Below, piece after piece: positions 16,305-25,170 of a stretch of 64,000 nucleotides of DNA (positions are counted from its first letter, which is position 1; every line of letters begins with the position of its first letter). The notes beneath the pieces were generated by a model. It did no database searches and was not told where the DNA came from. It was given only the letters and a program-made list of their open reading frames with translations. Source of the stretch: Mytilus trossulus (lineage: Eukaryota); NCBI RefSeq assembly GCF_036588685.1, contig NC_086385.1, forward strand, positions 27,861,216-27,925,215. Direction: 5' to 3'. Both the position numbers and the translations under genes were made by a program.

Positions 16305-16339
16305 TATAAAAGTATACAAATAGATTCAGCAAATCATTC
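16305..16339 (+). promoter_or_regulatory. TATA box (TATAAAAG, 16305-16312) and Inr-like TCATTC (16334-16339)
   Basis: Canonical -31 spacing, 27 nt upstream of the ATG at 16363. Confidence 0.65.
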
Positions 16340-16362
16340 TACACATTATATAATCTGTAGAC

Positions 16363-16413
16363 ATGATGACCAGGTTCCTGTTTTCAGCAGTTATGGTTGC
16401 TCTTGTAACACAG
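16363..16413 (+). CDS. peptide precursor exon 1 (signal peptide)
   Basis: MMTRFLFSAVMVALVTQ then CAG|gtatgt. Confidence 0.8.
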
Positions 16414-22400: not shown

Positions 22401-25075
22401 TAACAAGAACTACTTATAATATATTTCCTGTGATTTTGTAATTAGTGATTAAACTTTTTATTAAAAACGCGAGAGCCTCGTGGAATTATTAAATTTGGCT
22501 AAATTTCGAATCTCTTGTTTTAATATATTTTGGACTAATCATCATGAGTTTGTGATAATTCGATTTTTCTTTTTTTTTTTTTAACGTAGATGCACTTCTT
22601 TTATAGTTTTCCTTGAAATAATATTTTTATGATTCTGTTTGCAGGGAGTAAAAGAGGCGTTTTGAACGAGGTGAGCTAGGATTTTTTTTTATTTCCTTGC
22701 ATTACGTTCATTATAACTTAAACTATTACAAAAAAGGGGAGATACCAGAGGGACACTCAAAATCATATATCGAAAATAAACTAACAACGTCAAAGCTAAA
22801 AATGAATAAGACAAAAAGACAGACAATAGTACTCATGACAAAACATAGAAAACTTAAGAATAAGCAACACGAACCCCACAAGACACTAGGGTTGATCTCA
22901 TGTGCTTTGGAAGGGTAAGCAGATCCTGATCCACATGTGGCAACCGTCGTGTTGCTCTTGTTCTAAAATTTCCAAAAATAGTCTAATTAGATGTATCACA
23001 TTCATGAAAAGGAAGGGGACTGTAGTTATGATGTAAGTTACATATCCGAAATCATTTGTGAAACGGGTATTCCATAACGGTCACCCAACTCGTGATGGCG
23101 TAAAGTAGTAAATGCAACATATTTTTTCCATAGATAAAAAAATTTGGTTTTGAGGTTTGGTTGTACGGAAATTTAGAAATGATCCATGTAAACTTGTTGC
23201 TCTTTTAAATAAACTTATTCTAAAAGGTTACCTATTCAACACTGTAATACGATACTTGAATATTGTTTTTATTGGTATACATATTAATGGATTAAAAGGT
23301 AACTAAATATTACTAGTATGTTTTATACATATACATATTCATGGATCTACAATCTGTCGATACCTGTAATTTGGCATTGTACAAGGTCATGTGTTTCTCT
23401 GGCTGTTTATGGCGTCTTTACACTTACTATATTTGATGTGTACGGTTGATTATTTAGTCTTAGATGCATGACTTTTTTATTAGTTATTACTGGCTTTGAT
23501 CTAGCTGTCAAATAACTTCGAGTTCTCTCAGATTTGTTCATTGTGTCTTGTGTCGATATGTATAAGTACCCGGCCACGCTTAATTGTATTTTTGTCTATC
23601 TGATGATTTAAGCCTTTTCCAACTGATTTTTATAGTTCGTTCTTATGTTGTACTGTTAAACCACTGTCCAATGTTAAGGGGAGGGTTGGGATCCCGCGTT
23701 TTTTGTTATTTTTTTTACATAAATAAGCCCGTTAGTTTTCTCGTTTGAATTGTTTTACATGTCTTATCGGGGCCGTTTATAGCTTACTATGTGGTATGGG
23801 CTTTGCTCATTGTTAAAGGTCGTACGGTGACCTATAGTTGTTAATGTTTGTGTCATTTTGGTCTTTTGTGAATAGTTGTCTCATTGGCAATCATACTTCA
23901 TCTTTTTATATAAGCATTAGAATAATACCCGTGCTATGACAGTGTAAGATTGACTAGATGTTGATACATACTCGAAATGCAAGGCAACACTCAGTCAATA
24001 TATACCATTTGGGTGATGACAGAGTCGTTGTCAATATATCACATCCGGTTGAAGGCAGAGTCTTTAATGTTATAGCCAAATGAATATTCTGGTATATAAT
24101 GATTGAGACCATGTAAAAGTGTTGCATGTATGGTGAGACAATAAATATCAGATAATCGTCATACACTTATATTCTGTTGATTTCCTTCCTTCTGATTCCA
24201 TATCCGTGTTGACGCAGCTTTTGTATTTAAGAGGCACACCATTTCATATAACGTATGTGGTTGAAATGTAAAGCACAAAACACATAAACGGCATACGATT
24301 TACAGATAGTAGGTAACTATTGGAAAATGGGAAGTGAACAATTAGAAGTTTGTAGCACTAATACATAAAAACAATCTGACATTCTATTGTCGGCAGTTAT
24401 CGTTGCTTTACGTTCACTAGGATTTGTGAGATGTTAACACTCACTGATATAGAAATGAAGATATATCTTAACATGCTGAAGGTGAAATATTAAAACGTAT
24501 CAGTATAGACACAATATTGACCTTAATAAGAAGTTTAAAAATAACCATACTATGACATCAAATGATCGAAAGGCAAAAACTTGATAAAAACATAGAGACA
24601 GAAACCCCTACAAACTATTTAAATGTAATTTTTTAATGCAAACATCTTACAGTGGCTATGTTTTCTATTTGTGCATTACTTATCCAACTTTTTGGATAGT
24701 TAATTTGGTTATTAATATGATTACACTATTACTATTAACCAACTCATACTTTATTTCACGTTTTACCCTTTCAAGACCACTTCTCGGCTATGTAATGTTA
24801 TGACTTTTCTGATTTGCTTGATGTAGAAAAAAAGAAAAGCAAATCAATTTTAATCGCATTATTTTGTTACAAAAAGTCTCATATACATGATATACATCGC
24901 TTGTTGGTTAACATTATCAAACATGATCAATGTAGCCTTTTAAGATACATTATTACATAACGGATATGATTGGCGGTTTACTTCGCATGTTAATGCTTCA
25001 AGTGTGCATTTGGATAGGTAAATAGCTTAATTCTAAATGAACTATTGAAATTATCTTTGTTTTTTACAGGAATAG
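16363..25075 (+). CDS. secreted cysteine-rich peptide precursor, 90 aa, 7 exons (16363-16413, 16891-16919, 19766-19785, 20299-20328, 21949-22059, 22645-22670, 25070-25075)
   Basis: All introns are GT-AG with matching phases (0,2,1,1,1,0). Product: MMTRFLFSAVMVALVTQVLCKSLLDASTEKRNEENKRSATIVTGSCGRCFIGCPTGQEVRQCTADDFKNNRVICECTPISGSKRGVLNEE*. It has a signal peptide, three KR sites and 6 Cys in the mature region. TATA/Inr lies upstream and AATAAA at 25165-25170. Confidence 0.8.
16939..17741. mobile_element. 803-bp non-autonomous DNA transposon with long TIRs and a 9-bp TSD (AcademH- or MULE-like)
   Basis: Termini TAGTCCGAG...CTCGGACTA; ~290-bp inverted arms; TSD ttattagtc at 16930-16938 and 17742-17750. 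Confidence 0.85.
21949..22059 (+). CDS. peptide precursor exon 5 (six-cysteine mature domain)
   Basis: ccttttag| GSCGRCFIGCPTGQEVRQCTADDFKNNRVICECTPIS |gtgaaa; GC-richer than the flanks. Confidence 0.85.
22730..23100 (-). mobile_element. Penelope-like retroelement 3' fragment (dispersed family)
   Basis: Reverse complement matches the 26920-27130 fragment (catcacgagttg..gacc, gagcaacacgac..gccacatgt); related pieces at ~17950-18220 and ~63370-63580. Confidence 0.55.
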
Positions 25076-25164
25076 GTATGGTACTTGCTGGACGCATTCT
25101 GATATGGTTGTTGTTTTTTCGGAAATAACCATTAGTGGATTGGATTTAACCAACTAAAATACAA

Positions 25165-25170
25165 AATAAA
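25165..25170 (+). promoter_or_regulatory. polyadenylation signal AATAAA of the peptide gene
   Basis: 90 nt after the TAG stop. Confidence 0.5.

Follow-up and report, generated by a model that had tools for sequence, protein, structure and literature searches.

Structure of a seven-exon peptide gene in Mytilus trossulus

A stretch of 64,000 nucleotides of the Mytilus trossulus genome (assembly GCF_036588685.1, contig NC_086385.1, positions 27,861,216 to 27,925,215; hereafter the window) contains a gene of seven small coding exons, and its predicted product is a secreted six-cysteine peptide (Table 1). The exons are spliced into a frame of 90 amino acids plus a stop codon, and all six introns, which are 477, 2846, 513, 1620, 585 and 2399 nt long, run from GT to AG. 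A preliminary description of this DNA had proposed an in-frame gene of seven exons of 51, 29, 20, 30, 111, 26 and 6 nt; the six GT–AG introns and the 90-residue frame bear this out, and the TATA box and AATAAA signal that it had named are present at 16305 and 25165, respectively. A second copy of the gene was not found within the window. Intron 2 carries a repeat with inverted arms, which is probably a non-autonomous element.

Table 1. Features of the peptide gene, of its paralog on contig C8 and of the neighbouring DNA (window coordinates unless a contig is named; KR, Lys-Arg; UTR, untranslated region)
Feature	Position	Strand	Basis and remarks
TATA box TATAAAA, 58 nt 5' of ATG	16305-16311	+	Read from sequence; paralog with the same 12-nt TATA word
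Coding exon 1 (51 nt), residues 1-17, hydrophobic core of predicted signal peptide	16363-16413	+	Hydropathy up to 2.7; X8 joint to exon 2
Exon 2 (29 nt), predicted signal-peptidase site after Cys20 (V-x-C) and start of pro-region	16891-16919	+	Sequence, joints
Exon 3 (20 nt), first KR	19766-19785	+	Sequence; joints in X8 and X2
Exon 4 (30 nt), second KR and predicted N terminus of mature peptide	20299-20328	+	Sequence, joints
Exon 5 (111 nt, phase 1-1), entire six-Cys module C-x2-C-x3-C-x8-C-x11-C-x-C; Phe after Cys2 is candidate P1	21949-22059	+	Sequence, joints, AlphaFold model
Exon 6 (26 nt), third KR and short acidic tail	22645-22670	+	Sequence, joints
Exon 7, coding part (6 nt: last codon and stop), then 3' UTR	25070-25075	+	Sequence, joints; X2 contig spans 25071-25181
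AATAAA polyadenylation signal	25165-25170	+	Read from sequence; X2 contig piece ends at 25181, a contig end being no proof of a transcript end
Paralog	C8:79209400-79246880	minus	38 coding exons predicted from DNA pattern and database gene models
Repeat in intron 2	16920-17750		By eye and opposite-strand run pieces
Immunoglobulin-superfamily gene	26155-32685	minus	V-set and I-set exons at or over the Pfam cut-off
Mucin-like Thr/Ser-rich open frame, 1897 codons	49603-55296	minus	48-nt repeat (69 copies) and 129/153-nt repeats

Four public sequencing runs were compared with positions 16200-25400, namely the contig runs X8 and X2 and the raw-read runs X21 and X24, of which about 6% and 18% were read, respectively. 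Twenty of the 24 runs found contain part of the stretch, and X8 and X2 were examined among those; that they are RNA runs is a guess, and the record names no RNA run. The preliminary description had proposed mapping transcripts to the six junctions. X8 has joints at all six predicted introns, each with a depth of 69.2, a value that its 327-nt contig over exon 5 has as well, and X2, which comes from another study and has another organism code, has joints at at least three of the six among the matches listed. The position of the joints exactly at the GT–AG borders indicates that the X8 and X2 contigs stem from spliced RNA, and the window gene is real and spliced. The first base of exon 7 is A in both X8 and X2 and G in the window, and hence the last codon differs. 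The portions of X21 and X24 that were read contain no read at the joints of the peptide gene. With joints in two of the four runs, the expression or presence of the gene appears to be restricted.

X8 also contains a second transcript type between 16363 and 22059, represented by a 391-nt contig with a depth of 26.9 and eight differences over exon 5. Its signal-peptide end resembles that of the C8 paralog described below, and its pro-region is 18 nt shorter and has no KR pair in our reading. A close second copy matching this transcript was not found in the genome search, and it may come from a paralog absent from this assembly or from a very divergent allele.

Precursor and predicted mature peptide

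The 90-residue precursor has a hydrophobic N terminus, and KR pairs occur in it at positions 30, 36 and 83. Between the second and third KR pairs lies a 45-residue segment, which contains six cysteines with spacing 2, 3, 8, 11 and 1 and no adjacent cysteines, and has a net charge of 0, with four basic and four acidic residues. It lacks an amidation Gly. The order of signal peptide, KR-bounded segments and neutral 45-residue six-cysteine peptide proposed earlier is confirmed in the sequence by the frame, the KR positions, the spacing and the charge. Secretion of the product is predicted, as is its cleavage at the KR pairs into a 45-residue peptide, which is likely to have three disulfides. The V-x-C rule for signal peptidase would place the first cut after Cys20.

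A paralog encoding a predicted polyprotein

A search of the same genome with exon 5 found three exons on contig C8 that are 47% identical to it. In the 70 kb around these matches, a single exon matches the signal-peptide exon, and it is accompanied by an exon 2 of 29 nt and an exon 3 of 17 nt. The window and C8 loci share 32 of 51 nt in exon 1, 24 of 29 nt in exon 2 and 11 of 14 nt at the start of exon 3, and the TATA-to-ATG distance in the C8 gene is 60 nt, compared with 58 nt in the window gene. A genome search with the exon-2 pattern matched the window and C8 loci only, and repeated genome searches found no family locus other than these two.

Downstream of the first three C8 exons lie 18 six-cysteine exons, all of phase 1-1. 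Candidates for KR-bearing microexons of 12-33 nt are found in all 17 gaps between them, 15 by a strict pattern and two by further inspection. The window type (C-x2-C-x3-C-x8-C-x9 or x4-C-x-C) accounts for four of the 18 modules, and these four are cationic, with charges of +2 to +5. The other 14 are of a second type (C-x2-C-x3-C-x11/12-C-x2-C-x2-C), and 12 of these are acidic. The residue after Cys2 is His in six modules, Tyr in five, Arg in four, Phe in two and Ala in one. Three of the 17 linkers open with Gly-KR, and Gly-stop closes the last module; a Gly before KR or before a stop codon is an amidation signal. The C8 gene, a paralog of the window gene, is predicted to encode a polyprotein of 18 six-cysteine peptides, whose exons alternate with 17 KR microexons, with about 38 exons in total. 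Judged from their sequences, the window gene and the C8 gene are one family.

Relatives in other mussels

A HMMER search over 1.84 billion protein representatives gave four matches, among which one is a true relative, the hypothetical protein VDI69830.1 of M. galloprovincialis; two others were rejected because they are unrelated repeats on reading. A search for proteins near VDI69830.1 in length returned only itself among 12 candidates. Its cluster includes CAG2207712.1 of M. edulis. With a profile search, CAC5387714-17 of M. coruscus were found in addition (two matches among 551 candidates); they are unnamed and 530-574 residues long. By sequence comparison, VDI69830.1, CAG2207712.1 and CAC5387714-17 are unnamed orthologues of the C8 gene in three Mytilus species, and all the named relatives found belong to Mytilus. 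The database models from M. edulis and M. coruscus differ from C8 in the number and order of their modules. The database models of C8-type genes omit many KR microexons, so that the product appears as one fused repeat protein. For the product of the window gene, no candidate was found among proteins of 73-2000 residues, which is weak evidence by the tool's own note. No Pfam family scores above its cut-off with any module or orthologue scanned.

In the literature outside subscription journals and supplements, no paper was found with any of four peptide motifs or two accessions of the family, a listing in a supplement or in ScrepYard being possible. Searches for secreted microexon-encoded proteins of Mytilus found no paper, a search for CRP-II returned the CRP-I paper only, and no KR-processed antistasin polyprotein was seen in the literature listings. 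The family appears to be undescribed, the myticofensin sequences themselves lying outside those compared. The earlier view of a seemingly undescribed family that is neither CRP-I, mytilin nor myticin gains support from the cysteine array, the exon count, the charge and the motif search of the literature. The mussel gene class seems to have been largely overlooked in protein collections, and at 30-45 residues its peptides could be synthesized and tested directly.

Predicted fold of the cysteine module

An AlphaFold2 model of the exon-5 peptide, built with a five-sequence alignment that includes four paralog modules, has a mean predicted local distance difference test score (pLDDT) of 88 and contains short strands and one helix. 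The helix lies at residues 21-25, between Cys4 and Cys5, and none covers the CxxxC motif (Cys6-Cys10). The strand pattern is compatible with 1-4, 2-5 and 3-6 disulfides and with a tumour necrosis factor receptor (TNFR)-like pattern alike. In the cysteine-stabilised alpha-beta (CS-alpha-beta) fold, a CxxxC-bearing alpha-helix is followed by two antiparallel strands (PMC5116183, in excerpt). Since the model has no helix on CxxxC, a CS-alpha-beta fold is not supported, and neither is the view of the preliminary description that CxxxC together with CxC is the signature of this fold. In antistasins the same pair of motifs clamps the reactive loop (PMC3014083, in excerpt).

Modelling followed by a Foldseek search had also been proposed earlier. 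It yielded the model and no fold match: Foldseek returned no match at E <= 0.001, a result of little meaning at 38 residues, and a second look at its eight weak rows with VIA supported none of them. The second module type is modelled poorly, with a pLDDT of 62. The nearest ESM Atlas clusters are scorpion short toxins at 0.81, below the 0.9 that the tool uses as its lead threshold, and the Atlas gave no usable match for paralog module 1. Matches to ferredoxin, vWF, ICAM-1, an eggshell protein and a ciliate pheromone were rejected as chance likenesses of cysteine words.

A possible antistasin-like inhibitor

The explanation that we favour, if only tentatively, is that the window peptide may be a divergent antistasin-like inhibitor of serine proteases, released by convertases and carrying Phe at P1. 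Signal peptidase would cut after Cys20, and proprotein convertases together with carboxypeptidase E would free the peptide at the KR pairs. Disulfides 1-4, 2-5 and 3-6 would hold the non-helical CxxxC segment as a substrate-like loop, and the residue after Cys2, which is Phe in the window peptide and Arg, Tyr, His, Phe or Ala in the paralog, would fill the S1 pocket. Chymotrypsin-like enzymes would then be the targets of the window peptide, and the mixture of peptides from the polyprotein would extend to trypsin-like enzymes too, as with insect pacifastin precursors. Pacifastins provide a precedent, being inhibitor polyproteins processed at dibasic sites (PMC2689174, in excerpt).

The reactive loop of hirustasin, an antistasin, is its CxxxC segment, in which the two cysteines occupy P2 and P3' and are each bonded to CxC (PMC3014083, in excerpt). 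The same CxxxC spacing and a terminal C-x-C partner are present in the window peptide, as a matter of spacing only, with Phe-Ile at the positions equivalent to P1-P1'. A hidden Markov model (HMM) was built from 39 six-cysteine domains of 15 antistasin loci of this genome, and shuffles with fixed cysteines served as a control. Paralog module 1 scores 18.4 bits, which was reached by 8 of 4997 shuffles and, in a repeat, by 1 of 2000. Two further modules were equalled by 115 of 4998 and 215 of 5000 shuffles, and nine of the ten modules tested in the repeat lie above their own shuffle mean. Of the resemblances, only that to antistasin withstands the comparison with shuffles, and only in a single module.

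Many observations weigh against an antistasin-like inhibitor. Allowing for 19 modules, the P value of paralog module 1 is about 0.03, and the score of the window module was reached by 803 of 5000 shuffles and is not significant. HHalign probabilities against antistasin are 0.9-2.3%. D-x-x-G-C is missing from the window module, in which a loop of 11 residues takes the place of the two residues of antistasins and the Cys1-Cys2 spacing is 2, compared with 3-5 in all 39 extracted domains. The Pfam antistasin profile PF02822, with its cut-off of 21.2 bits, matches no module or orthologue scanned, and in a genome-wide search with it (150 of 209 candidates scored) neither family locus is among the 142 matches listed. 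PDB sequence searches with window-type modules place the death receptors DR5 and DR4 first, with no antistasin among the matches listed. In the structure searches, none of the eight weak Foldseek rows is an inhibitor, and a wide VIA search found none of 48,161 chains at Z >= 2, which is uninformative for 38 residues. Among ten near-identical repeats, amino-acid variation clusters near Cys2, and synonymous variation does so likewise, so that the pattern gives no indication that P1 is under selection. The commonest P1 candidate among the 18 C8 modules is His (six of them), which is not known as a usual P1. Membership can be claimed neither for antistasin nor for TNFR. If the peptide were an antistasin-like inhibitor nevertheless, the family would offer a new small scaffold with a natural P1 series, and the pacifastin strategy would have arisen independently in bivalves.

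Of the 142 listed antistasin matches in this genome, 132 pass the Pfam cut-off. Among them, at C5:45.57-45.59 Mb, are uninterrupted open frames, 662-685 codons long, that each encode about 20 antistasin domains in tandem. The position equivalent to P1 is Pro or Thr in many of the antistasin domains. Enrichment of the antistasin family is reported for the digestive gland of Mytilisepta (PMC5549309, in excerpt).

Alternative functions

A less probable explanation is that the peptides form a cocktail of defence effectors, venom-like or antimicrobial, whose targets would be the membranes of microbes, or the ion channels or receptors of parasites and predators. The four cationic paralog modules of the window type and the amidation signals of three C8 linkers and of the last module are consistent with such a role, and the acidic spacers ending in Arg are reminiscent of the processing of venom peptides. 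The scorpion short toxins nearest in the ESM Atlas point in the same direction, but at 0.81 they stay under the lead threshold. The absence of the second X8 transcript from the assembly would fit the presence/absence variation of mussel antimicrobial peptide families (PMC10138031, in excerpt); however, only two loci were found in this genome, compared with the large and hypervariable families of such peptides. Moreover, the window peptide has neither a net charge nor an amidation Gly and is not predicted to adopt the CS-alpha-beta fold, and 12 of the 14 second-type modules are acidic.

It is unlikely that the window-type modules are register-shifted cysteine-rich repeats of TNFR, consisting of the B2 module and flanking cysteines, that, in soluble form, would modulate signalling by the TNF family or act as decoys in it. 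A window-type module of the paralog matches human DR5/DR4 in PDB at E 0.0013-0.0022, profiles match them at E 0.0013 and 0.0074, and Pfam TNFR_c6 matches a paralog module at E 0.045. DR5 and a lentivirus receptor, which is presumably a TNFR-family member, account for three of the eight weak Foldseek rows, and among ten TNFR segments of this genome two likewise start with the spacing 2,3 and end in C-x-C. However, searches of PDB and Pfam with the window peptide alone yield no TNFR, and the paralog module scores 14.6 bits against PF00020, below the cut-off of 29.4 bits. Against an HMM of the ten mussel TNFR segments, no module stands clearly above its shuffles (527 of 2000 for the window module and about 93 of 1998 for the best). 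Since the matches are limited to DR4/DR5, convergence is likely. In addition, the 14 second-type modules have no TNFR signal, and a 45-residue monomer would have little avidity for a trimeric ligand. Either a defence role or a TNF-decoy role, if true, would mean a new family of mussel effectors.

Similarly unlikely is a mussel-specific system of peptide cocktails with a small disulfide fold of its own, in which one gene would make a single peptide and the paralog would be an exon-cassette polyprotein with every peptide and every convertase site on a separate symmetric exon. Duplication or skipping of exons could then retune a mix of antistasin-like and TNFR-like effectors, some of them decoys for TNF ligands.

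A prohormone giving rise to neuroendocrine or pheromonal ligands of a G-protein-coupled receptor or other receptor is a still weaker candidate. The classic signal peptide, the layout of KR pairs and acidic spacers, the multi-copy precursor with amidation signals in the paralog and the restricted expression, with joints in two of the four runs, would all suit a prohormone, but no neuropeptide family of Pfam matches, and the named relatives are all from Mytilus, whereas neuropeptides are usually conserved across molluscs. Secreted metal-binding peptides with CxxC pairs as thiolate ligands are very improbable: the second-type modules are rich in C-x2-C and acidic, and there are weak 4Fe-4S motif matches, but the Pfam matches are all below cut-off and rest on the short word CxxCxxxCP, and cysteines of secreted proteins normally form disulfides.

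Neighbouring features of the window

The immunoglobulin-superfamily gene lies tail-to-tail with the peptide gene and has a likely transmembrane exon. The GC-skew peak of the window is due to the mucin-like open frame.

Comparison with known systems

The antistasin family (MEROPS I15, PF02822; hirustasin) shares with the peptides described here a six-cysteine unit of about 30 residues, CxxxC followed by x-x-G and a terminal C-x(1-2)-C, and D-x-x-G-C is found in paralog module 1; many mussel antistasin domains are likewise encoded in single small exons. The present family differs by its Cys1-Cys2 spacing of 2, by the 8- and then 11-residue loops and the missing D-x-x-G-C of the window module, by scores below the Pfam cut-off and by the KR microexons that flank each module. 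The cysteine order of pacifastins differs from that of the family. Precursors of insect pacifastins also have a signal peptide and tandem six-cysteine domains and are processed at dibasic sites to single peptides (PMC2689174, in excerpt), a layout that is predicted from DNA for the C8 gene. No pacifastin match was found in Pfam (E <= 10), and every cleavage site of the present family has its own exon of 12-33 nt.

The cysteine-rich domain of TNFR (DR4/DR5, PF00020) shares a C-x2-C-x3-C-P-x-G...C-T...C-x-C run with the peptides described here, with E of about 0.001 for one paralog module. The repeat is cut elsewhere in TNFR and the present family has no membrane anchor; the score of 14.6 bits lies below the cut-off of 29.4 bits, and the comparison with mussel TNFRs is not significant.

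Mussel CS-alpha-beta peptides, namely defensins, mytilins, myticins and myticofensins, are secreted and contain both CxxxC and CxC. Seven myticofensins have reportedly been described in M. coruscus. Myticofensins B are listed with one helix and two sheets (PMC12055553, review table). Defensins, mytilins and myticins have eight cysteines, are cationic and carry a helix on CxxxC, and mytilins have four exons and an anionic C-terminal extension (PMC7168163, in excerpt). In contrast, the window gene has seven exons and its product is a KR-bounded peptide with six cysteines and no net charge. In the X-tox proteins of Lepidoptera, too, cysteine modules stand in tandem and are encoded by one exon apiece (as cited in PMC4558851, in excerpt), but these modules are defensin-like, which the C8 and window modules are not predicted to be.

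Mussel CRP-I and multi-CRP-I are pre-pro-peptides with a KR site and six cysteines that occur in single- and multi-module forms (PMC4558851, in excerpt). Their signal peptide and short pro-region ending in KR are found in the window gene as well, which is a generic feature. The same paper describes a C-C-CC-C-C array, four exons, all modules in one exon and linkers of 2-4 residues, whereas the six-cysteine family has one exon for each module, together with KR microexons.

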